Source: Acutalibacteraceae bacterium (GTDB taxonomy: Bacteria > Bacillota > Clostridia > Oscillospirales > Acutalibacteraceae). Taken from it: a stretch of DNA of 64,000 nt. The stretch lies in assembly GCA_045630885.1 (NCBI GenBank), contig JAZQTQ010000034.1, positions 18,606 through 82,605 of the forward strand, read 5' to 3'. Under the pieces are notes generated by a model. It saw only the letters and a program-made list of their open reading frames with translations. It was not told the DNA's origin and searched no databases. Of this stretch, positions 9,126-26,888 are shown piece after piece. Position numbers and translations under genes: made by a program. Numbering within the stretch: the first letter of the stretch is position 1; the number at the start of each line of letters is the position of its first letter.

Positions 9126-10145
9126 TCATAAAATCAGCATCGCATCGCCAAAGCTGAAAAATCTATATTTTTCTTCAACTGCTTGCTTATAGGCATTCAT
9201 TGTGTTTTCATAGCCGGCAAATGCAGAAACGAGCATAATCAAGGTGCTTTCGGGAAGATGAAAGTTTGTTATTATTCCGTCCATACATTTAAACTGATAA
9301 CCGGGATAAATGAAAATATCGGTATCTCCGCTGCATTCTTTGATTTCGCCAATATTTGCGATACTCTCAACAGTTCTGCAGCTAGTTGTTCCAACACAGA
9401 TTACCCTTCCGCCTTTTTCCTTGGTTTCATTAATTAAGTCTGCGGTTTTCTGCGGCATATAATAATGCTCGCTATGCATTTTATGCTCGGTTAATTCCTC
9501 GGCTTTGACGGGTCTGAACGTACCTAGTCCTACGTGAAGCGTTACGAAGCCTACGTTAACTCCCATTTCTTTTAATTCTTGGAACATTTCGGGAACAAAA
9601 TGCAAGCCCGCAGTAGGAGCGGCGGCGGAGCCTAAATTTTTAGAATAAACAGTTTGGTATCTTTCTTTATTCTCAAGTTTTTCCTTAATATAGTGTGGCA
9701 ACGGCATTTCGCCAACTCTATCAAGAATTTCATAAAAATTACCTTGAAATTCGAAATCGATAACACGATTACCGTCTTCCTTGACTTCAACCACTTCACA
9801 TTTAAGCTCATCAGAAAAGATAAATCTTTTTCCGACCTTTGCTTTTTTACCCGGTCCCGCTATTGCTTCCCATCTGACAGACGATATTTGTTTTAAAAGC
9901 ACAAATTCACAAAGAGACCCTGTATCCTCGCGCTTACCGAACATACGAGCAGGCAAAACCCTTGTATCATTTAAAACGAGGCAATCTCCCGCCTTTAAAT
10001 AATCAAAAACATTTATAAATTTCTTATGCTCAACCTTCCCGCTTTTTCTATCAAGAAACATCATTCTTGAAGCATTTCTTGGCTCTATAGGGGTTTGAGC
10101 AATAAGTTCTTCAGGCAAATCATAAAAGAAATCGCTTTTTTTCAT
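9126..10145 (-). CDS. queA: S-adenosylmethionine:tRNA ribosyltransferase-isomerase
   Basis: 339 aa. [23 protein letters not shown] and [12 protein letters not shown] are QueA signatures. It forms the queA-tgt pair. Confidence 0.95.
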
Positions 10146-13522: not shown

Positions 13523-14266
13523 TTAAGAAAATAATTTTTTAAGGGATTCTAAAAAACCTTCCTCCCTTTCAATTATTTGCAAAGCTATTGATTGTAGGTT
13601 TGCTATTGCTGCCGTTTCTGTTATACCAAGCGTTATACTATTCAATAAGCTATAACAGAAGGGTTGATTATTATATCTTGGTAAATTTATCTTAATTAAA
13701 TTAAAACCAATTTTAGAAACCGATTCAGATATATGATAAATTTCTCCGAGTTGCTCAGTACCTTTTAAAAGCATAACAACACTCGCTCTCATTCCCGTTC
13801 CGATATCTGCAGGATTTTCTGTTAAATATCCCAGTTGTTCGCTAAAAGCAATTTGAAGCTCCTCGGAAATTGCGTTATCAATGACGTCTGCCGTTTTATA
13901 AGCTTCCTCCAAAGATAATCCGCTATTAACAACCGATATTTTAATATGGTCCTGCTCCGAAAGCATTATGCCTATATTTTCATCTTTGGACAAAAGAAGA
14001 ATTTTATTCCTTCTATCACTAATAAATTCCTGACTGACAAGAGATTTATAAAACAAATGCTCAATATCATCATTTGAAGCAAATTCCATATCTATTCTTT
14101 TGAAGCCGAAAGATTCGCAAGCTTTTGAATTCGCGACCGCAGTACAGACAAGGTCGTTTACGGCTCTTTTTTGTTCATCATCCAATCGGTCGGGGAAAGC
14201 AAATCCCGCAAGATTTCTTGACAGAGTTATTTTAGAATAAATTGCAATACCTTCATTATTAAGCAT
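13523..14266 (-). CDS. mcsB: Protein-arginine kinase McsB homolog (short form)
   Basis: Phosphagen-kinase-like motifs are present: SRNLAGFAFP, EQDHIKIS, LGYLTENPADIGTGMRASV. The product is only 247 aa. Its position between mcsA and clpC supports the call. Confidence 0.75.
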   Translation of the reverse strand: MLNNEGIAIYSKITLSRNLAGFAFPDRLDDEQKRAVNDLVCTAVANSKACESFGFKRIDMEFASNDDIEHLFYKSLVSQEFISDRRNKILLLSKDENIGIMLSEQDHIKISVVNSGLSLEEAYKTADVIDNAISEELQIAFSEQLGYLTENPADIGTGMRASVVMLLKGTEQLGEIYHISESVSKIGFNLIKINLPRYNNQPFCYSLLNSITLGITETAAIANLQSIALQIIEREEGFLESLKKLFS

Positions 14267-14762
14267 TTTCTTCCCTTCCCTTCAATAAATTTATTTCATC
14301 TCGGATTTTTGCCGCTAATTCAAAATTTTCAACCTCTACTGCGTCTTTAAGCTGTTTCTTAAGTTCTTCAATTCTAGACGTTGAACTTAATCTTGGAGAG
14401 GAAGAAAGCGGAATTTTCCCTTGATGATGAGTTGCGCCGTGTATTCTTCTGAGGGTTGGATAAAGTTGACGATAAAAAGTTTTATAACATTCGGCACAGC
14501 CCATTCTACCCTTGCTCGCAATATCCGAAAAAGATGCTCCACATTGTTTGCAAACGTCTTCATATCCTTTTGGCATTTTGGGATTAAGCGCTTCATCATC
14601 AAAAGCAGAAGCCATCATATTCATAATTCCGAGTCTTCCGAATCTTCCCAAACCTGCGCCCGAAGCACAGTATCCACAAAGATTCATATCCGTAACCCTG
14701 CCATTAATAACCGTGTGTATATGAGTTGTTGCGATATACTTACCGCATTTTTCACATTTCAT
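14259..14762 (-). CDS. mcsA: McsA (UvrB/C-motif, zinc-finger activator of McsB)
   Basis: 167 aa. Has N-terminal CxxC pairs (CEKCGK...CGYC; CKQCG...CAEC) and a C-terminal UVR motif (FELAAKIRDEINLLK). It overlaps mcsB by 8 nt. Confidence 0.8.
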   Translation of the reverse strand: MKCEKCGKYIATTHIHTVINGRVTDMNLCGYCASGAGLGRFGRLGIMNMMASAFDDEALNPKMPKGYEDVCKQCGASFSDIASKGRMGCAECYKTFYRQLYPTLRRIHGATHHQGKIPLSSSPRLSSTSRIEELKKQLKDAVEVENFELAAKIRDEINLLKGREENA

Positions 14763-17264: not shown

Positions 17265-17753
17265 TTATACGTTCCCTTTAATTCTGTTTAAAGCCGATTT
17301 TTCTAACCTTGATACCTGCGCTTGACTTATTCCGATTTCTTCCGAAACCTCCATTTGCGTTAATCCGTCAAAAAATCGCAATCTAAGAATTTTCTTTTCC
17401 CTTTCATTAAGGTTTTTTATCGACTCTTTAAAAGATATTTCATCTATCCAATTTTCATCGTCATTTTTATCTCCAATTTGGTCTAAAACATAGATAGTAT
17501 CCCCACTATCGGAATAAACCGGCTCATACAAGGAAACGGGATCAACGACGCTTTCTAAAGCTATAACCACCTCGTGTTTTTTCAATCCTAATTCCTTTGC
17601 AATTTCTTCAACTGTTGGCTCTCTTTGTAGTTTTGCTGTTAGTTTTTCCTTAACCTGCATTGATTTATAAGCAACATCTTTTATAGAACGACTCACTCGA
17701 ACGCTATTATTATCACGTAGGTATCTTCTGATTTCTCCAATAATCATCGGCAC
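17265..17753 (-). CDS. sigG: sigG 3' segment (regions 2.4-4 of forespore sigma factor SigG), separated from its 5' segment by an intervening element
   Basis: (V)PMIIGEIRRYLRDNNSVRVSRSIKDVAYK...DPVSLYEPVYSDSGDTIYVLDQIGD...LTQMEVSEEIGISQAQVSRLEKSALNRIK is near-colinear with B. subtilis SigG from residue ~98 onward (recalled sequence). There is no RBS or plausible native start. The reading frame begins inside the 10-bp att core. Confidence 0.9.
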   Translation of the reverse strand: MPMIIGEIRRYLRDNNSVRVSRSIKDVAYKSMQVKEKLTAKLQREPTVEEIAKELGLKKHEVVIALESVVDPVSLYEPVYSDSGDTIYVLDQIGDKNDDENWIDEISFKESIKNLNEREKKILRLRFFDGLTQMEVSEEIGISQAQVSRLEKSALNRIKGNV

Positions 17754-17771
17754 GAATATTGTTTGACGAAA
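17744..17771. repeat. attL: 10-bp core TCATCGGCAC plus element-side arm GAATATTGTTTGACGAAA
   Basis: The core is identical to 24423-24432. The arm is an inverted copy (16 of 18 nt) of TTTCGACAAATAATATTC at 24407-24424. Confidence 0.8.
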
Positions 17772-17824
17772 TAAGAATAAACTATTGTTTTAGGGGGAAA
17801 ATATTTTAAAGGAGAGCAAAAAAT

Positions 17825-18013
17825 ATGAAAAAGAATACCAGAGAAGAAACAAAATCCAAAAGAGGTTATCAAAGAAATTCAGACGATACTGCTTTTGATA
17901 TAATAACAAAATACGGAACCTATAATATTCAACCTACCGCCGATACTGAAAATCCTTACCCGAAAATCGCTCAGGGTCTTCCAAAAGAAAAAAGCGAACG
18001 AAAAAAACATTAA
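17825..18013 (+). CDS. Hypothetical 62-aa hydrophilic, basic protein (first gene inside the element)
   Basis: AAAGGAG RBS 9-10 nt upstream of the ATG, with a terminator hairpin immediately downstream. I recognise no family. Confidence 0.5.
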   Translation: MKKNTREETKSKRGYQRNSDDTAFDIITKYGTYNIQPTADTENPYPKIAQGLPKEKSERKKH

Positions 18014-18041
18014 AAAAAGCACCCCCGAAGGGTGCTTTTTA
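18012..18041. terminator. Bidirectional terminator inside the element
   Basis: AGCACCC-CCGAA-GGGTGCT flanked by an A-run and a T-run, between convergent genes. Confidence 0.6.
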
Positions 18042-18042
18042 A

Positions 18043-19464
18043 TCATATATACAAGCCTGCTTCTCTTAACTTCTTTTGAAGAATCGATACATCTATTTCA
18101 CAGGCATTTTTATTAGTATCCTTTGCTATTGCAGATGCAGTTCCAACTGCCTGACCTGTCATAACGCAGGTTCCTTGAATACGAGTGCTTGAATGTGCGA
18201 TATGGTCGGAGGAAATACATCTTCCGCAAGCGAGAAGATTGGAAATATCCTTAGAAGCAACAGCTCCAAAAGGAATATCATAACAATCTCCTTTTATGCT
18301 ACCTCCGATGGCTCTCGCCTTTCCTGTCGGATCGTGAATATCAATTATGTATGAGCCACGAGCAATAACGTCGGGGAATTCTTTACAGTTTATTGCATCA
18401 ATTCCGCGAAGAATTGTTTTTCCAACCAATCTTCTTGTTTCTCTAACTCCAAGAGTGAAACCGGACTGTAAATAATAAGCATTTTCGAATCCGGGAATAA
18501 ATGTTTTGAGAAAATCAACAAGAGCAATAATTTGCTTTTGCGCAAGCAATTCTCCCCTATTGAGATCTTCTGAATCCGAACCGTTTATATTAACGACTCT
18601 CGACATATTTATAACCGCAACGCCTTCTCTGTTTGAACGAGTTACCAAAACTCTGCCTTGAGGCATAGGAATGGCATCTCCTGTTATTTCAAATCCACAA
18701 GTACCGGCAAATTTCCAATCCATAAAGCGTTCTTTGGTTATTCCCAAATCGCCGAATTTGAGGTCTTTGTTATTTAGCGTATATGCTTTATCAACGTCAA
18801 CACCGCCCATTAGGAAGAAAATCGAAACAGGTTGCATCATTCCCTCGTGTCCATAACCCTCAAACTTATTCTCGCTGAAATGCGATTTATTAAGGCCACT
18901 TTCAACCAGAGCGTCAAAATCTCCCGCTGCGCTTCCTAATGCATATTCCGCACCTGACAATGCCACCAAATCAGCATCGCCGCTAGCATCAATAAAGGTT
19001 TTGGCAACTATTTTTGTTAATCCCGATTTATCGCAAGCAACACATGATTTTATTTCGTTATTTTCAGTTTCAACCGAAATCAAGGTTGAGTGAAAACGAA
19101 TTTCAACACCTGCTTTGTCAAGCAAATCAATCAGAACGTATTTTAAAATATGGGGTGATGCAATATCAGATATCTTGCCTTTTGCTCCGCAAGAGCAATA
19201 TTCTTTGCTTAAATTTATTGTTTCATCACATATTTCATCAACAAGTCCGCCAAAACGTTTACCCGAAACCGTTGTAACAGCATCTAACGGGGTTACGAGT
19301 CCTAACGTTGCTTGACCGCCAAGAACTCCACTTGATTCGATTAAAACTGTTTTACAACCATTTCTTGAAGCCGCAATCGCTGCAGAACAGCCCGCTAAAC
19401 CTCCGCCTATAACAACTGTATCACAAAAAATTTCTTTATTAATATTTAAAACAACATTGTTCAT
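18043..19464 (-). CDS. FAD-dependent oxidoreductase (FAD_oxidored/PF12831-like)
   Basis: 473 aa. N-terminal dinucleotide-binding motif DTVVIGGGLAGCSAAIAASRNGCKTVLIESSGVLGGQAT. Confidence 0.8.
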   Translation of the reverse strand: MNNVVLNINKEIFCDTVVIGGGLAGCSAAIAASRNGCKTVLIESSGVLGGQATLGLVTPLDAVTTVSGKRFGGLVDEICDETINLSKEYCSCGAKGKISDIASPHILKYVLIDLLDKAGVEIRFHSTLISVETENNEIKSCVACDKSGLTKIVAKTFIDASGDADLVALSGAEYALGSAAGDFDALVESGLNKSHFSENKFEGYGHEGMMQPVSIFFLMGGVDVDKAYTLNNKDLKFGDLGITKERFMDWKFAGTCGFEITGDAIPMPQGRVLVTRSNREGVAVINMSRVVNINGSDSEDLNRGELLAQKQIIALVDFLKTFIPGFENAYYLQSGFTLGVRETRRLVGKTILRGIDAINCKEFPDVIARGSYIIDIHDPTGKARAIGGSIKGDCYDIPFGAVASKDISNLLACGRCISSDHIAHSSTRIQGTCVMTGQAVGTASAIAKDTNKNACEIDVSILQKKLREAGLYI

Positions 19465-19479
19465 AATAACAATCCTTTC

Positions 19480-20271
19480 CTACCATTTCGCTGAACAGTT
19501 AAAGAAGTCCGTTCCAATGAAGCCAACTTGAGCAAAGTCTTCGGGATTTGCCCTGATAATATAATCAATATAAGACATAATAACCTTTGCCATAAATTTA
19601 TATCCCATCGGATTCATATGTCCGCCGAGGAAGAATGCCTTTCTGAATTCAGGAGAATCATAATCAGTTCCATATTTGCAAAGGTCCAGAACATAAGTGT
19701 AGTCAAACAAATTTGCTAATTCCTTCAAAAGCTTTGTATGCTCGGCAATTATTGTTTGATCTCTGCCTTTCGGGAATCCAACGAGAAAAAACTTAGCTTT
19801 AGGCTGAATTTCCTTATATCTTTGAATAATTTTTCCATAGTTTCCGGCAAAGGTATCTTTATTATTGTTATAGTCATTGAGATCAATGTCATCAATCGAA
19901 CCTATCGGTTTTTTTCGATTACATAGGTCATTAACTCCCAGCGCTATTATATAAGCCTGCGCCTTTAATTCCGGATTCCAAAAGTCTTTACTTTCCGCGA
20001 AAGATTCGCAGTATTCACGGGCAGTCATACCGCCTCTTGAAAAATTATAGACTTTGCTGCCTGTCTCTCTGGCAAGAAATTGACCCCATGAATATTCAAA
20101 ATAATCATGGTAACCCTTCTCGCCATTTTCGTTGAGCGATTCAAATTCACCCGAAGATAAACTATCTCCAACGCAAGCTATCGTTCTAAAAATCGAACAA
20201 AAACCTCCATCGGAAACTATATTATCAAGCGGATTTTCGCCCTCATTAATAAAAAAACGAGATATATCCAT
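19480..20271 (-). CDS. SGNH/GDSL-family hydrolase (esterase)
   Basis: 263 aa. Has block I ACVGDSLSSGE, a GGMT block and GVNDL. No signal peptide is apparent. Confidence 0.8.
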   Translation of the reverse strand: MDISRFFINEGENPLDNIVSDGGFCSIFRTIACVGDSLSSGEFESLNENGEKGYHDYFEYSWGQFLARETGSKVYNFSRGGMTAREYCESFAESKDFWNPELKAQAYIIALGVNDLCNRKKPIGSIDDIDLNDYNNNKDTFAGNYGKIIQRYKEIQPKAKFFLVGFPKGRDQTIIAEHTKLLKELANLFDYTYVLDLCKYGTDYDSPEFRKAFFLGGHMNPMGYKFMAKVIMSYIDYIIRANPEDFAQVGFIGTDFFNCSAKW

Positions 20272-20331
20272 TTTTTACACCTTCTAAAAACACCGCAGAC
20301 ACATTGAAAAGTGTCTGCGGTTAAAATGATA

Positions 20332-22776
20332 TTAAGCGCCTAAGGTTACTTCAACCTTATAAACATTACCGGAGGTTTCGGGGTTGAGAACATTGCCTTC
20401 AACCTCTTTACCGTTAACGATCATCTTAGAAACGCCGCAACAAACCTTATTGGGGTTCTTAACAGAAATTTCAAAGGTATTTCCACGGAATTTACGAACG
20501 ATAGTGAAGTCTTCCATATTGTGGTCTACGCAAGGATCAATAATCAAACCGCTATAATCCGGACGAATGCCGAGAATGAATTGAGAAATAGCAACAAAGT
20601 TCCAAGCTGCAGTACCCGTTAAGAAAGAGTTCTTAGCCTCGCCGGGCTTCTTAGCATAAGCAGGCTTACCACCAACCATCTGAGCATATACGTATGGCTC
20701 AAGACGATGAACTTCACTGAATTCCTCAACATATCCGGGAGCAATTCTTTTATACATTTCAAATGCTTTATCGCCGCGACGTGCTATTGTTTCTGCGCAC
20801 ATAAGCCAAGGATTGTTATGGCAGAATACACCGCCGTTTTCTTTATAACCGGGGATAAATGAACCAATTTCACCGATTTCAGGATTAAAGGTGCTATAAG
20901 GAGGATCAAGAACAACAAATCCATAAGGAGTTGCAAGACGCTCCCAACAGCTATCAAGGGATTTTATATTCATTCCTTGATCCTTGCCGATTTCTGCCAT
21001 TGAGCACCAGCCCTGTGATTCGATAAAGATTTTTCCGTCATCACATTTTGAAGAACCAATAGGTCTGCTAAAATGATCGTATGCACGCAAGAACCATTCG
21101 CCGTCCCAACCATCTTTGATGATTGCTTTTTCCATAGCTTCAATATGTCCCTTTGCTGCTTCTGCTTCATCAAGCTTTCCGATTAAGCGGCAAATCTTTT
21201 CGAAATCTCTACCATAATAAACAAACTGACCTGCAATCATAAGACTTTCTGCAGTTTTGCAATCGGTTTTCTCTGTTCTCTGGAAGCTCTCGCCAACAGT
21301 ATTAGACATACAGTTAAGGTTGAGGCAATCGTTCCAGTCAGCTCTTCCGATAAGCGGTAGATCATGTGGTCCTTTGTTATTAACAACGTGATAGAAAGCG
21401 CGTTTTAAGTGGTCGAACATTGTATCAGCAAGTTCTTCTTTATTCTCATAAGGAACCATTTCTTCAAGAAGTCCGAAATCTCCTGTTTCCTTAATGTACG
21501 CTGCGACGGAAGCAATAAGCCACATTGGGTCATCGCCAAAGTTGCCGCCGATTTCGTCATTACCCTTCTTGGTTAAAGGCTGATACTGATGATATGCTCC
21601 ACCGTCAACAAGCTGAGTTGATGCAAGGTCTATAACTCTTTGACGAGCACGTTCCGGAGCCAAATGAACGAAACCGAGAACGTCTTGGTTACTATCTCTG
21701 AAGCCCATACCTCTGCCTATTCCACTTTCAAAATATGAAGCGCTTCTGGACATATTAAAGGTGATCATTGTTTGATACTGATTCCAGATGTTAACCGTTC
21801 TATCCAATTTCTCGTCGGCACTCTTAATTGTGAATATGCTAAGGAGTTCATCCCAATATGCCTTAAGCTCTTCGAGAGCTTTATCAGCCTTTTCAGATGT
21901 ATTGAATTGCTCCATCATTGGATACGCATTTTCTTTATTGATTACGTTAAGAGCCGTCCATTTTTTATCCTGCTCATTTTCAACATAGCCAAGAATGAAA
22001 ACAAATTCTTTTGTTTCGCCGGGTTCTAATTCAACGTTTAAGCAATGAGAACCGATTGGAGCCCAACCGACTGCAATAGAATTTGTAGGAGCGGTTTCGC
22101 AAACGGTTACGGGGTGGTCAAAGCCATTATAGATACCTAAGAAATCCTCACGGTCGGTATCAAATCCACAAATATCAGCATTAACGCTATAGAAAGCAAA
22201 ATGATTTCTACGCTCGCGATATTCTGTTTTGTGATAAACAACGTTACCTTCAACCTCAACTTCACCAACAGAGAGGTTTCTCTGAAAGTTTGTTTGATCA
22301 TCAAGGCCGTCCCAAAGAGCGAACTCGATGAAAGAATGAAGTTTTAATTCCTTCTTAGCGTTGGTGTTGTTTGTTAAAGCAACCTTCTGAACCTCTCCGG
22401 CATAGTTTAGAGGAACAAAGAAGGTGCATTCAGCGGTAACACCATCTTTTTCGCCATGCACGACAGTATAACCCATACCATGACGACATTCATATTTATC
22501 AAGAGGAGTTCTCATAGGTCTGAAGCCAGGGCTCCAAACAGTATCTCCGTCTTTTATGTAGAAATATCTTCCGCCATCGTCCATAGGAACGTTATTATAA
22601 CGGAATCTGGTGATTCTGCGAAGTCTTGCATCACGATAGAAACTATATCCACCGCAAGTATTGGAAATCATCGAGAAAAATGACTCGTTTCCAAGATAGT
22701 TAATCCAAGGATAGGGCGTGTTAGGTGTTTCAATAACATACTCTTTCCTCGCATCATCAAAATGACCGAATTTCAT
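20332..22776 (-). CDS. GH94 glycoside phosphorylase (cellobiose / chitobiose phosphorylase family)
   Basis: [64 protein letters not shown] is the typical cellobiose-phosphorylase N-terminus, and the ~814-aa size fits. The start is set at the second ATG (GGAGG 9 nt upstream). Confidence 0.9.
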
Positions 22777-22858
22777 AAACATTAACCTCCATTTTGCCGT
22801 TGAAACAGCATTTTATTTAATAATATCATAACATCGCAAAAAATACAATAAATAATTT

Positions 22859-22888
22859 GCATATTTTTTTGTTTTTTTGACAAAAATT
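22859..22888 (+). promoter_or_regulatory. Candidate forespore (SigF/SigG-type) promoter upstream of the recombinase module
   Basis: GCATA (22859-22863), 15-nt T-rich spacer, GACAAAAATT (22879-22888). Compared with my recalled SigF consensus GCATR-N15-GGNNANAHTR there are 2 mismatches in the -10. Pattern match only. Confidence 0.3.
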
Positions 22889-22911
22889 ATTCGCAAGGAC
22901 GGTGAAAAAGT

Positions 22912-23058
22912 ATGGTTATAAAAAACATTGATACAAATGGAAACACAGTCGACTTTAAGAAAATAGAAAATTTGGTTTTATCAAACAAGATTTGCAATCA
23001 GATCCTATCAAATACTCTTGAAAATATTTCGGAGGATTATGAAAATGAAAAAGGATAA
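22912..23058 (+). CDS. Hypothetical 48-aa ORF overlapping the recombinase start (candidate accessory/directionality factor)
   Basis: The ATG at 22912 is preceded by GGTGAAAAAG. Translation is MVIKNIDTNGNTVDFKKIENLVLSNKICNQILSNTLENISEDYENEKG. The stop at 23056-23058 overlaps the recombinase start region in another frame. No homology is recognised. Confidence 0.3.
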   Translation: MVIKNIDTNGNTVDFKKIENLVLSNKICNQILSNTLENISEDYENEKG

Positions 23059-24406
23059 AATAACTGCGCTTTACGTTAGGGTTTCAACAGATGCTCAAGC
23101 AGAAGAAGGATATTCGATTGATGCTCAAAAGGAAATGCTTTTAGGATACTGCAAATCCAAACAAATAGAAAACTACGAGTTTTTTATAGATGGTGGGTTT
23201 TCGGGGAGCAATATAGAGCGTCCCGAAATGTCAAGACTTATTGAAAAAATCAAAAGCAAAGAAATAAAATCTGTTGTTGTTTACAAGCTCGACAGACTAT
23301 CAAGAAGCCAAAAAGATACCCTTTTTCTAATCGAAGACGTATTAAATCCCAACCAAACAGAATTTGTTTCGCTCAACGAAAATTTAGACACCTCAACCTC
23401 TATAGGCAGAGCGATGCTCGGCATTATGTCCGCCTTTGCTCAACTTGAAAGAGAAACAATTAAGGAACGAACCCGAATCGGAATGAAAAAGAGGGTTGAA
23501 GCCGGTTTTTGGATGGGCGGAGGCAAAGTTCCTTTTGGCTTTGATTACGATAAAACAAGTGGAAAACTCATAAAAAATCAAGATTCAAACGTCGTTAAAA
23601 AGATATATGAAATGTATATTGACGGCCATTCTGCTAATTATATCGCCTCGGCGTTAGGCTTTAAATATGACCAGCAAATCATTCAGATTATTAAAAGAAA
23701 ATCTAATTACGGCTCTATTATGTATAACGGAAAAGAATATGAAAACTGCCACGAAGGAATTATAGATAAAAGCCTTTATTTGCAAGCAATGACGGAAATG
23801 AAAAGGCGGTCTAAACAAAAAGTTCCAACATCAAAATACCTATTAACAGGTCTTTTGGAATGTGGCGAATGCAAAGCTAAATTAAGATATCAAAAATGGG
23901 GCAAATATTCAACAAAAATAGTTTGTTATTCCAGAGAAAAATCAAAAAAATATTTGATTAAAGATGAAAATTGTTCGCTTCCGATTTTTGATTCTGAAAT
24001 TATCGAAAACTATGTATTACAAGAAATTTTTAAAATCAAAACAAATTCGATTAAGCCCAATAGCGAGGATAAAATAAATGTTATTAAAGAGCTTAAAGAA
24101 AGAAAAAGACAATTTGAAAATGAACTTAAAAGACTATATTCCCTATTCTCAAAAAGTGATGATGATATACTAATCGAAGCCATTGAAGAAGCTAAAGAAC
24201 GATTGCAGAACATCAAAAAACTGATACAGTCCGAAGAAGAAAAAGGTGTTGTAAGCAAAGAAAAAAAGTTAATATTCGATAAACTTGACAACATAAAATC
24301 GATATGGAAATACATCTCAATACACGAGCAACAACAATTCATAAGAAGCATTATTGAAAAGATTGTAGTTTCAAAAACAAGTATTGAGATTGTTTATAGG
24401 CTATGA
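23031..24406 (+). CDS. Large serine recombinase (SpoIVCA / phage serine-integrase family)
   Basis: Has the N-terminal resolvase catalytic domain (ITALYVRVSTDAQ, YKLDRLSRS, ERETIKERT), a recombinase domain, a zinc-ribbon (CGECKAKL...C) and a long coiled-coil tail. The start is ATG 23031 or 23037 (GGAGGA at 23023-23028). The track TTG at 23018 is less likely. The stop at 24404-24406 abuts the right att arm. Confidence 0.9.
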
Positions 24407-24714
24407 TTTCGACAAATAATATTCATCGGCACGGCATAGGTTGAAAAACGCACGTTTTGAGATATATCAAAATTATCTATCGCTTTTATAAGTCCAATGC
24501 AACCAACCTGGAACAGATCGTCCGGATTTTCTCCCCTGCCTACGAATCTTTGAATTACACTTAGAATCAACCTTAGATTGCCGTTTATAAGTTCCTCCCT
24601 TGCTTTCATATCACCTTCTTTTACTCTTTTTAAAAGTTCCTCTTTTTGCGATTCTTTTAAAACAGGTAATCCTGCCGTATTGACTCCGCAGATTTCAACT
24701 TTGTTATACTGCAT
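24394..24714 (-). CDS. sigG: sigG 5' segment (regions 1.2-2.3 of SigG); native coding ends in the att core at ~24424, followed by 9 element-encoded codons
   Basis: MQYNKVEICGVNTAGLPVLKESQ...GNLRLILSVIQRFVGRGENPDDLFQVGCIGLIKAIDNFDISQNVRFSTYAVPM carries the SigG-specific NKVEICGV-T--LPVLK N-terminus. GGGAGG RBS upstream. After AVPM the frame reads NIICRNHSL-stop from element DNA. Confidence 0.9.
   Translation of the reverse strand: MQYNKVEICGVNTAGLPVLKESQKEELLKRVKEGDMKAREELINGNLRLILSVIQRFVGRGENPDDLFQVGCIGLIKAIDNFDISQNVRFSTYAVPMNIICRNHSL
24407..24432. repeat. attR: element-side arm TTTCGACAAATAATATTC plus 10-bp core TCATCGGCAC
   Basis: Partner of 17744-17771. The arm and core overlap by 2 nt. 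Confidence 0.8.
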
Positions 24715-24738: not shown

Positions 24739-24768
24739 CATTATTACCTTTTAAAACTTTTGGAATAC
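24739..24768 (-). promoter_or_regulatory. Candidate SigF-type forespore promoter of sigG
   Basis: On the minus strand: GTATT (24764-24768), 15-nt spacer CCAAAAGTTTTAAAA, GGTAATAATG (24739-24748). The -10 fits my recalled consensus GGNNANAHTR at every specified position. It ends ~24 nt upstream of the ATG. Confidence 0.45.
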
Positions 24769-24842
24769 AAAAAACAGGAATATATATTTTTTATTCTTCG
24801 ACAAAAAATGCTTGACAAATGAAATTATTTTTATTAACAAAA

Positions 24843-24868
24843 AAACCACACAAAAAATGTGTGGCTTT
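24843..24868 (-). terminator. Terminator between licD-like gene and sigG
   Basis: On the minus strand: GCCACACA-TTTTT-TGTGTGG followed by a T-run. It isolates sigG from the upstream envelope operon. Confidence 0.6.
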
Positions 24869-24873
24869 TTTCG

Positions 24874-25713
24874 TTATTTTATCAGCTTATATATTTTAAA
24901 CGTGTGATGAGCAACTCTTTTTTCTTCGGGCGGAAGCTTCATATAATCACCATATAACTGTTTCAGATATGCGTCATAGTTCTTAACCGCCGGAAGCTTT
25001 AATCCTTCAAATTCAATTTCTTCCAAATCAAGATAGTCAGATTTTGGGAATTTTTCTTTATAAGTATACACTGCGCAGATAAGCGAAAGGCTATCGGCTT
25101 CGTCGAAACTGATTTTAGAAACTGCGTCCATATACCATTTATATATTCTTTTTGCACCCAGAATCTTACAAATTATAATCGGCAAAGGTTTTATAATAAA
25201 TGCTCTTAAAAAGCCGTCTCCTTTAAATAAGGCAGAATTAGAAAATATAAACATCTGGCGGAGAATTTTTATCTTTTTTGCGAGTTTATTATATTCTTCT
25301 TCGCTTGAAGGAACCGCTTCTATCGGGAAAAGGTCGATTCCGAAATATCCGCAAGTTTTCTCGCTATAATAAGCATCAACACTGACATAATCCATATTAC
25401 AAATTCTTCCGTAAAGCCTCGAATGATACGGCAAGTTTTCTCTTGAAAAGAATCTGCAACTTTCAGGCATTTCATCAGCAAGCTTTATGAGTTTATCATA
25501 ATCTGGGCGAAACATCGAAATATCAACGTCATCGTCCCAAGGAATAAAACCTTTATGACGAACAGCGCCAAGCAAAGTTCCTTGAGTTAAGCAATATCTG
25601 AGATTATGCTGTTTACAGAAAGAATCAAACTCTTTTAAAAGTTCAATTTCAATCGCCTTAATTTCCTTCATATCGGTAATTTCGGCGCCTCTCTTAATTT
25701 CGCAAATTCTCAT
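24874..25713 (-). CDS. LicD-family phosphotransferase
   Basis: LTQGTLLGAVRHKGFIPWDDDVDISM is the LicD/FKTN nucleotidyltransferase-fold motif. The start is set at the ATG at 25713, which forms an ATGA overlap with the upstream gene's stop. The track ORF starts 12 codons earlier. Confidence 0.85.
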   Translation of the reverse strand: MRICEIKRGAEITDMKEIKAIEIELLKEFDSFCKQHNLRYCLTQGTLLGAVRHKGFIPWDDDVDISMFRPDYDKLIKLADEMPESCRFFSRENLPYHSRLYGRICNMDYVSVDAYYSEKTCGYFGIDLFPIEAVPSSEEEYNKLAKKIKILRQMFIFSNSALFKGDGFLRAFIIKPLPIIICKILGAKRIYKWYMDAVSKISFDEADSLSLICAVYTYKEKFPKSDYLDLEEIEFEGLKLPAVKNYDAYLKQLYGDYMKLPPEEKRVAHHTFKIYKLIK

Positions 25714-26888
25714 TTTTCTATCCCCACAAATTTTATAATTCTTTCGCAACTCTTGTCGTCTTTATAGAAATTAACCTTTTCATTTATGTCGGATCTTTCT
25801 GCTTGATATTCGTCTATACCATTTACTGTGTCCTCAATAAATTTATAGAAATCATCGGCGTTCTTCATCTTAGCGCCGGGCATATAATCAAGCGGGTTTT
25901 CAAAAACAAAGCCCCTGTTTCCCGAATAAGAATCGATATCATCGATCGTGAATGCCATAGGTTTATCAAGAAGCAGATAATCGAAGAACACAGAAGAATA
26001 GTCGGTTATCAAAGCATCGGTTTGCTTTAACAGAGAATAGAAATGAATGCCTTTATCTTCCAGCTGAGGATTTGTTAAACAAAGAATATTTGAATGACTT
26101 GAATAATTAAACTTCTCCATATTTTGCGCATGATGAAGTTTTAGTATTAGTAAAGATTCGTTTTCTTTTAGTTTTTGATTAAGCGCCTCAACGTCTGAAA
26201 TTGTTGCAAAAATCGGAAGACCGCTTTCGGTTAAAAACTCCCAATCCGTATCTCTTTGAACCTCGTTAAATGAAAAACGATAGGTTGGCATCCAAACGAA
26301 TATTTTCTTATAAGATTCAGGGTCGATATCAAGTTTTGCAAGCTCATCGACGTTATCGAAAAGATAGTCATTTCTCGGATGACCATTAATAATAACCCTT
26401 TCAAGTTCACATCCGAAGCTCTCGGCAAAAATCGGGCGATAAAGCTCCGACGTTGCTGTGATATAAGTGAAAAAATCGTATTTATAATCAGGGTCGATTG
26501 TTTTGTTGATTTTTTTGAAGGTTGTAGCGTGCCAAAAATCAACCGATTTTTGTTTCTTTGTTGGCATTATTGCAAGCATTTCATTATGATAGAAAATATA
26601 TTTGCAACGCATTATGCTCCAAATTGACCAAAAAACACTTATAAATTTAACGTTTTTATATCCCAATTCTTTATAATCATCGGGATTCTTAAGAGCGCAA
26701 ATAATTTTATACTTTTCATTATACCCGTTATCGATAAAATGCTTGAAAAGCGCTTCACTATTATCATATAAATTAGTTGTTGAGAAGAACAAAATGGACC
26801 TATCGTTTTTCGGAATAAACTTATTTACAAAAGAAAGTATTCCACAAAGCCCAAAATAAATTTTTCTCTTTGCTTTTCCCTGTATCAT
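25710..26888 (-). CDS. CDP-glycerol glycerophosphotransferase (TagB/TagF family)
   Basis: 392 aa. WMPTYR, HHAQ and LITDYSSVFFDYLLLDKPM are typical TagB/TagF motifs. Confidence 0.85.
   Translation of the reverse strand: MIQGKAKRKIYFGLCGILSFVNKFIPKNDRSILFFSTTNLYDNSEALFKHFIDNGYNEKYKIICALKNPDDYKELGYKNVKFISVFWSIWSIMRCKYIFYHNEMLAIMPTKKQKSVDFWHATTFKKINKTIDPDYKYDFFTYITATSELYRPIFAESFGCELERVIINGHPRNDYLFDNVDELAKLDIDPESYKKIFVWMPTYRFSFNEVQRDTDWEFLTESGLPIFATISDVEALNQKLKENESLLILKLHHAQNMEKFNYSSHSNILCLTNPQLEDKGIHFYSLLKQTDALITDYSSVFFDYLLLDKPMAFTIDDIDSYSGNRGFVFENPLDYMPGAKMKNADDFYKFIEDTVNGIDEYQAERSDINEKVNFYKDDKSCERIIKFVGIEK

Follow-up and report, generated by a model that had tools for sequence, protein, structure and literature searches.

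The 64,000-nucleotide stretch of Acutalibacteraceae DNA analysed here (the window) carries at positions 17751–24429 a non-phage integrative element that a large serine recombinase has inserted into sigG, at codon Pro-96. This gene encodes σG, the late, forespore-specific sigma factor. The ends of this element are very probably the attL and attR sites of an active serine-recombinase element, the excision of which restores sigG. As far as our searches reach, it belongs to a widespread and undescribed family of sigG-intervening elements and sigG-integrating phages. The original prediction had read the element ends as serine-integrase attachment sites, and this reading is supported by the enzyme itself, the rejoining of sigG, the covariation of the arms, the mapping of GG, the geometry of attP and attB, and the occurrence of a free attP. 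The departure from the textbook lies in the identity of the interrupted gene, a forespore sigma factor gene, which that prediction left unnamed.

The element splits the sigG gene

Two minus-strand open reading frames (ORFs) flanking the element are the halves of one gene. Joined across the repeat, they yield an uninterrupted protein of 256 amino acids reading ...FSTYAVPMIIGEIRRYLRDNN..., which passes the SigG equivalog NF006071 at 432.7 bits (cutoff 372) and stays far under the cutoffs for SigF, SigE and SigK. The crossover falls within the codon of Pro-96, in sigma region 2.4. The gene and the element are arranged as follows:

17265–17753, minus strand: sigG 3' part, sigma regions 2.4 to 4.2, codons 97–256 and stop
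17751–24429, no strand assigned: intervening element, 6679 bp, ends set by crossover at GG
24428–24714, minus strand: sigG 5' part, codons 1–95 and the CC of Pro-96
24740–24768, minus strand: putative sigG promoter of the forespore (σF/σG) type, GTATT-N15-GGTAATAAT, conserved in loci L003 and L004

Bases 17751–17753 (GTG) in the 3' ORF are element sequence, and the unexcised open frame of the 5' part extends into the element to 24394. The promoter is assigned by a forespore-type consensus, and a terminator lies upstream of it. Downstream of sigG follow ylmC/ymxH and spoIVB, both intact and both above their family cutoffs. Assembly of the sigma factor from two protein fragments without rejoining of the DNA was considered and dropped, since the break lies inside region 2.4 and the C-terminal fragment has neither a ribosome-binding site nor a promoter.

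Attachment sites and the position of the crossover

The two attachment sites consist of the following parts:

17732–17771, plus strand: attL, made of B half-site, crossover GG and P' half-site
17732–17748, plus strand: attL B half-site on the sigG C side, TTTCTCCAATAATCATC
17749–17750, plus strand: predicted crossover GG of attL
17751–17771, plus strand: attL P' half-site of the element, CACGAATATTGTTTGACGAAA
24407–24446, plus strand: attR, made of P half-site, crossover GG and B half-site
24407–24427, plus strand: attR P half-site of the element, TTTCGACAAATAATATTCATC, first base directly after the recombinase stop
24428–24429, plus strand: predicted crossover GG of attR
24430–24446, plus strand: attR B half-site on the sigG N side, CACGGCATAGGTTGAAA

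The 10-bp direct repeat TCATCGGCAC noted earlier is present at 17744–17753 and 24423–24432, and the identity reaches one base (G) further, making the repeat 11 bp long. The inner arms GAATATTGTTTGACGAAA (17754–17771) and TTTCGACAAATAATATTC (24407–24424) are reverse complements at 16 of 18 positions, and the circular junction forms the 44-bp dyad that had been drawn, its GG centre corresponding to 17749–17750 and 24428–24429. With GG as the centre, the attP half-sites are 21 nt each, running TTTC...ATC. One detail changes: the recombinase stop codon, placed 1 nt from the arm by the original prediction, directly abuts it (TGA at 24404–24406, gap of 0 nt).

Chance repeats, or the target-site duplication of a transposon, could in principle account for such ends, as 10-mers recur ~2,900 times at a spacing of 2–15 kb in this AT-rich window. 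The full configuration of repeat and arms (a direct repeat of at least 10 bp, spacing of 2–15 kb, inner flanks complementary at 16 or more of 18 positions) was absent from all 200 dinucleotide-preserving shuffles of the window, and its analytic chance is ~3e-4 per window (~2,300 10-mer repeat pairs x 3 offsets x 4.9e-8). The repeat is moreover coding sequence required to rebuild sigG, and its length differs between relatives (7 to 11 bp) although they all retain the central CC, which is unlike a duplication made by a transposase. The probability left to either explanation is negligible.

A scan of genomes with an alignment of the recombinase recovered 80 loci from Clostridia genomes and metagenome-assembled genomes (MAGs). 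A sigG half broken at the same residue lies ~20–200 bp from the recombinase stop in about 55 of them. Two layouts occur: 38 loci, the window among them, have the recombinase convergent with the sigG 5' half, and 14 have it just upstream of, and co-directional with, the sigG 3' half. Both are interspersed across the recombinase tree. We aligned 60 junctions from the ~55 related loci on the sense strand of sigG. The centre is CC (GG on the plus strand of the window) in 60/60 junctions, and the element-side half-site follows the consensus TTTCnnCAA..A.ATTCAT, with TTTC beginning 21 nt from the centre. The arms vary by lineage yet stay complementary through compensatory changes, matching at 16/18 positions in the window, 17/18 in L004 and 18/18 in L003 and L107.

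Individual loci narrow the position of the crossover. The identity between attL and attR starts exactly at CC in L055, where it spans only 7 bp, and stops exactly after CC in L006, which excludes the base on one side and the base on the other, respectively; the downstream ATG (AT and TG) drops out because the N-junction is ATA in 6 loci and ACA in L074. This comparative mapping leaves GG/CC as the only dinucleotide fitting every pair of attL and attR, and crossover is predicted to occur there, as originally proposed. Large serine recombinases act on imperfectly symmetric att sites of ~40–50 bp, cutting at a non-palindromic central dinucleotide that sets polarity.

Both half-sites in sigG contain TTTCnnC starting 17 nt from the centre. 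The consensus of the 60 junctions takes the form TTTC-N17-GG-N17-GAAA for attP and of a pseudo-palindrome TTTC-N13-GG-N13-GAAA for attB, placing the outer motif of attB 4 bp nearer the centre than that of attP. An attP longer than attB with a shifted outer motif corresponds, at the level of consensus sequences, to the architecture of large serine recombinase sites. In silico, recombination of attL and attR at the central GG would produce a circle carrying the 44-bp attP and leave a 36-bp attB inside a perfectly restored sigG.

The recombinase

23045–24406, plus strand: large serine recombinase, 453 amino acids, at the right edge of the element and convergent with the sigG 5' part

The length of 462 amino acids given previously counts from an upstream TTG; 453, from the ATG at 23045, is most likely, because a database twin and all close homologues have the same length. 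The near-identical database recombinase (P0046) carries the organism name Acidaminobacterium. The protein contains the Pfam domains Resolvase (PF00239, 4e-39), Recombinase (PF07508) and Zn_ribbon_recom (PF13408). All 27 homologues compared keep Ser14 (in RVSTD) and the DRLSR motif, and the zinc-ribbon residues Cys273, Cys276, Cys294 and Cys310 are likewise invariant among homologues. The AlphaFold2 (AF2) model shows a catalytic domain, a long αE helix, a recombinase domain and a zinc ribbon with an embedded helical hairpin at 342–400, and its best Foldseek matches are full-length integrase–att complexes: 9dxd (E 8e-19), 9iu2, 4kis and 9tep. Among solved structures, the best match by sequence is the TP901-1 catalytic domain (E 2e-35); identity over the aligned structures is 13–21%, except for 45–49% to that domain. 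Scores stay well below the equivalog cutoffs for XisF of the cyanobacterial fdxN element (107.6 bits against 375) and for the SCCmec proteins CcrB (154 against 900) and CcrC (113.5 against 900). The 453-residue protein is a bona fide large serine recombinase.

Selection on sigG and inheritance of the element

All loci with both junctions (9/9) rebuild an ORF of 255–261 amino acids. Between close carriers, the ratio of non-synonymous to synonymous substitution rates (dN/dS) is 0.017–0.055 where measurable, for both sigG halves, with dS saturated and dN at 0.03–0.14. It reaches up to 0.12 in the most distant pairs of carriers, and is 0.03–0.08 between carriers and intact sigG. These values argue for strong purifying selection on the split sigG and for a gene that is still used.

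This bears on two alternative accounts. Were the insertion dead, with sigG permanently inactivated in an asporogenous lineage and the attachment sites mere relics, the lack of any observed excised form would be explained, and many gut Clostridia have lost sporulation. Such an account is very improbable and already largely refuted by the intact halves of sigG in 9/9 reconstructible loci with their low dN/dS between close carriers, by arms that co-vary to stay complementary, by a recombinase that is intact and conserved, and by the intactness of SpoIVB and YlmC. It is also improbable that excision is real but inconsequential, with the split copy a mere integration site and σG supplied by a second, intact sigG or replaced by σF. 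The visible genome is limited to 64 kb, which leaves room for such a copy. A redundant broken copy would decay, however, and the split sigG does not; in L010 and L055 the split gene sits in the canonical spoIIGA-sigE-sigG operon, and the split copy of the window neighbours ylmC-spoIVB.

The element has diverged together with its hosts. In the pairs window/L001, L003/L004 and L005/L006, dS of the recombinase and of the cargo glycoside phosphorylase GH94 reaches the level of the flanking host genes; for L005/L006 it is 0.98 for GH94, 3.3 for the recombinase and 0.6–2.0 for host genes. The identities of recombinase and SigG correlate across loci (r = 0.74 and 0.65), and an element with GH94, the small cargo gene ORF62 and the recombinase is common to the window, L003, L004, L005 and L006. 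Syntenic empty sites occur in L085 and L086. L085 is sister to the carrier L006 in a 770-column host tree, which places an empty site among carriers. The simplest reading of these sequence comparisons is a single old acquisition, after which the element descended vertically as its hosts speciated and was now and then lost precisely from the germline. Taken together, purifying selection, co-divergence and the nested empty site indicate that the element is stably inherited, that sigG is used and that precise germline excision has occurred.

A further account is that of a selfish element that uses sigG as a conserved landing site; upon sporulation it would excise irreversibly in the forespore and be lost from the spore. 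Its persistence would then rely on mostly vegetative propagation in the gut, or on rare excision with most carriers failing to sporulate. The patchy distribution, with precise empty sites nested among carriers, fits this account, as does the use of the same attB by real temperate phages, for which sigG may offer no more than a strongly conserved target; no evidence of reintegration was found. We nevertheless consider it rather unlikely. Element genes have diverged at synonymous sites like host genes, and the same element is found in species-level lineages, which implies many germline generations without horizontal replenishment; the elements of 2.5–6.8 kb have no transfer or packaging genes; and purifying selection on sigG implies that sporulation is used, each use of which would purge the element.

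Phage relatives and variant loci

The family that splits sigG is hosted by dozens of species of Oscillospiraceae, Acutalibacteraceae, Lachnospiraceae, Defluviitaleaceae and others, and has viral members. A cultured carrier with a complete genome is Oscillospiraceae bacterium LBM23126 (CP176394.1). In the IMG/VR contig L107, with genes for terminase, portal and HNH proteins, an integrase 53% identical to the window enzyme is directly followed by TTTCGACTAGGTACATTC-ATCGGCAT-GAATGTACCTAGTCGAAA, a free attP with perfect arms. Its integrated siblings L089, L091 and L092 have the same P arm fused to sigG. A second clade of recombinases, ~35% identical to the window enzyme and found on viral contigs of 50–80 kb (within L108–L181), joins sigG at ...ATCGG|, with integrated forms in L116, L131, L147 and L167 and free attP in L111 and L151. 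Its arm sequences differ from those of the window family while the sigG dinucleotide is the same, which suggests an independent or very old convergence of the two clades on the attB of sigG. With phage contigs bearing free attP on the one hand and sigG-fused forms on the other, genuine temperate phages use sigG as an attachment site. To them the window element stands much as skin does to SPbeta: it is a small relative that lacks phage genes and carries metabolic cargo.

Several loci deviate from the common plan. L003 (6900–11850 of the locus; GCA_045542355.1, JAZQKX010000008.1) differs from L004 by a clean 430-bp inversion comprising attR together with the 5' half and the promoter of sigG. In L003, attL and attR are consequently inverted relative to each other, with arms complementary at 18/18 positions, so that recombination would flip 4.9 kb and restore sigG without loss of DNA; the arrangement is seen in a single MAG. 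A degenerate remnant resembling a P arm (TTTCGCAAAATATGG) lies beside the recombinase stop in this locus. In a Defluviitaleaceae MAG, a minimal sigG element of 2.5 kb (L045) carries genes for tRNA-Thr(GGT) and tRNA-Trp(CCA) at 9500–9689, between a 185-amino-acid ORF and the recombinase; a homologue of this ORF lies immediately after attP in the phage L107. In L016, L077 and L078 the sigG 5' half is found 4–7 kb past the recombinase instead of abutting it, and appears frameshifted in L078. The three loci could represent composite or tandem elements, or sites in decay.

A proposed model of excision and inheritance

The explanation that we favour overall, with somewhat more confidence than doubt, combines excision of the sigG element in the forespore, retention of the circle and reintegration. 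Its parts differ in strength. Because sigG is required only in the forespore, we infer that excision must occur in the forespore chromosome, and that excision is sporulation-linked and takes place in this compartment is reasonably probable. A directionality factor made in the forespore would trigger it. The best candidate for this role is a small acidic ORF coupled to the recombinase gene:

22912–23058, plus strand: acidic 48-amino-acid ORF, overlapping the recombinase start

This ORF is conserved upstream of the recombinase across the sigG-targeting family, in both layouts; an exhaustive HMMER search with it retrieved only 4 homologues. The excised circle would then be kept in the spore, undiluted in the non-dividing forespore, a proposal suggested by an element without replication genes in a cell that does not divide. 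With the factor gone at germination or outgrowth, the recombinase alone would return the circle to sigG, as integration is the default reaction of these enzymes. SprA, the integrase of SPbeta, alone integrates, and excised SPbeta reintegrates when expression of SprB is not sustained. By this analogy, reintegration is plausible; retention of the circle followed by reintegration is our favoured, if tentative, answer to how the element is passed on. In the co-directional layout (L045, L010), where most element genes are oriented as sigG, read-through from the sigG promoter could, speculatively, time the expression of recombination genes.

A number of observations weigh against this explanation. 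No circular or attB form of the window element or its close relatives was found, nor a 100%-identical intact SigG, nor a free attP of the window subgroup in viral contigs, and a metagenome scan returned integrated or truncated relatives only, with no excised form. As its patchy distribution shows, the element is at times lost. The candidate 48-amino-acid ORF shares a transcript with the recombinase, an unusual arrangement for a directionality factor, and the operon of the two has no convincing promoter: its conserved blocks fit neither the σA nor a sporulation-sigma consensus, and a sigma-70 scan stayed at background (23 sites against 23.6 expected). A second intact sigG might lie elsewhere, given a view of 64 kb, though purifying selection on the split copy argues otherwise. 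Finally, nothing in the element replicates or segregates the circle, so that reintegration would need speed and efficiency.

ORF62, which lies beside attL behind a forespore-type promoter, was considered as the directionality factor and rejected: its homologues are stand-alone chromosomal genes with similar promoter boxes, far from any recombinase or sigG, and most sigG elements lack it. A better reading of ORF62 is that of a small forespore protein captured by the element.

Comparison with known systems

The published sporulation gene-intervening elements (skin, SPbeta, vfbin, vrin, gin and yin) all reside in mother-cell genes, and according to the published rationale, an element inserted in a gene of a terminal cell line is thereby sure of vertical transmission. 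A survey of sporulation genes in 180 genomes reported split sigK only. We found no prior description of an interrupted or split sigG in the literature searched, paywalled papers lying outside its coverage. Like these elements, the window element interrupts a sporulation coding sequence, and its precise excision is predicted from sequence to restore the gene. It departs from them in that the target is not a mother-cell gene, as judged by the match to the SigG equivalog NF006071 and by the forespore-type promoter. As σG acts in the forespore, rebuilding sigG cuts the chromosome that is to be inherited.

The closest parallels are skin with SpoIVCA in sigK of Bacillus subtilis, and skinCd with CD1231 and the recombination directionality factor CD1234 in Clostridioides difficile. 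In all of them a recombinase gene lies at the element edge, the coding sequence of a sporulation sigma factor is split, precise excision rebuilds the gene, and size and cargo vary widely between species with only the recombinase shared. Skin and skinCd interrupt sigK, expressed in the terminal mother cell, whereas sigG belongs to the forespore and germline, and the terminal-cell rationale is inapplicable. The recombinase is, as far as tested, not a close relative of SpoIVCA either.

SPbeta, inserted in spsM and served by SprA and SprB, likewise has a highly symmetric attP around a conserved core with a 2-bp central crossover, and comprises both active phage and defective derivatives at the same site. 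The switch of an integrase from integration to excision by a small directionality factor would, by analogy, be a further shared trait. Excision of SPbeta is specific to the mother cell, however, and the spore retains the prophage; the core is AA there and GG here, and the identity between attL and attR goes down to 7 bp (L055), against 16 bp in SPbeta. Like the window element, the gin element in gerE of Bacillus cereus ATCC 10987 intervenes in a gene without being a prophage, and combines serine recombinase(s) with non-viral cargo. The gin element measures 28.6 kb, has three recombinases and interrupts a mother-cell gene, compared with 6.7 kb, one recombinase and carbohydrate-metabolism cargo in the window.

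In reversible active lysogeny (Listeria phi10403S in comK; SpyCIM1 at mutL), the interrupted gene is similarly needed in a cell with progeny, so that excision must precede reintegration or episomal carriage. The comK and mutL systems are not linked to sporulation; SpyCIM1 is a replicating episome, but replication genes are absent from the window element, the reversibility of which is a proposal. With the integrases A118/LI, TP901-1, Bxb1 and phiC31 the window enzyme and its sites share the order of catalytic domain, αE helix, recombinase domain and zinc ribbon with embedded coiled-coil, an attP longer than attB, an outer zinc-ribbon motif shifted inward in attB and a non-palindromic central dinucleotide. 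The shift is 4 bp here and 5 bp for A118/LI integrase.

Under the classic rule, excision from sporulation genes is tolerated since the mother cell dies and the spore keeps the element. The sigG elements pose a problem for this rule: a germline chromosome must be cut, yet the element is still passed on. It is possible, if doubtful, that they and the phages sharing their attB represent a reversible germline rearrangement, excising under σF, riding the spore as non-replicating circles and re-entering at germination. If so, forespore excision would license σG production and act as a DNA-level lock on the forespore programme, phages would have a dedicated route into spores, and L003 would be a domesticated version in which the enzyme flips a segment and nothing is lost. 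This inversion, if confirmed beyond the single MAG, would be a neat way round the germline problem. It can now be tested whether bacteria have a reversible programmed rearrangement in the germline, whether phages enter spores by this route, and whether σG activation, a long-studied checkpoint, is gated at the DNA level in many gut anaerobes. In surveys of gut Firmicutes genomes, a split sigG will be mis-scored as a missing sporulation gene. The family would also offer a set of natural integrases with attP/attB pairs mapped by sequence comparison.

Cargo and genomic context

The remaining features of the element are:

17775–17803, plus strand: putative ORF62 promoter of the forespore type, GAATA-N14-GGGGAAAATA, boxes conserved in L003, L005 and L006
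17825–18013, plus strand: ORF62, 62-amino-acid cargo protein of an unnamed clostridial family (KYGTYNIQPTADTEN.YPKIAQGL), at the left element edge
18014–18040: bidirectional terminator after ORF62
18043–19464, minus strand: FAD-dependent oxidoreductase, cargo, 473 amino acids
19480–20271, minus strand: GDSL/SGNH hydrolase, cargo, 263 amino acids
20332–22782, minus strand: GH94 glycoside phosphorylase, cargo, 816 amino acids

The same gene order is found in L004. No phage (structural, packaging, lysis), replication or transfer genes were found in the window element, which holds the cargo genes and two small ORFs only; in gene content it is no temperate phage or prophage, though its relative L107 is a phage. 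The amino acid identity of GH94 among compared pairs of carriers is 89–96%, against 66–76% for the recombinase and ~84–95% for SigG. Conservation so far above that of the recombinase and SigG suggests that the GH94 cargo is under strong selection in the host.

The ORF62 promoter is the sole match in the window to GNATA-N14-GGNNANANTA. The ORF62 family comprises 57 small clostridial proteins with no Pfam match. Forespore-type boxes precede the stand-alone copies examined (L182:6001–6249, L184:6001–6210) as well as the element copies, so ORF62 is probably an undescribed small spore protein, and the element probably carries at least one forespore-expressed gene.

In the window, sigG is monocistronic, lying behind a terminator and a LicD/teichoic-acid gene cluster (24740–25749), and not downstream of spoIIGA-sigE as in L010 and L055. 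Upstream of its promoter, at 24796–24818 on the minus strand, TTTGTCAAG and TTGTCGAAG are conserved in L003 and L004; TTGTCGAAG contains TGTCGAA, a putative match to the Spo0A-box consensus. The outer motif of the att arms, TTTCGNCAA (17763–17771 and 24407–24415), is the reverse complement of TTGNCGAAA and also has TGNCGAA. Downstream of spoIVB, at 13523–14762, lie an mcsA-like and a truncated mcsB-like gene of the protein-arginine kinase system, both scoring under their equivalog cutoffs.

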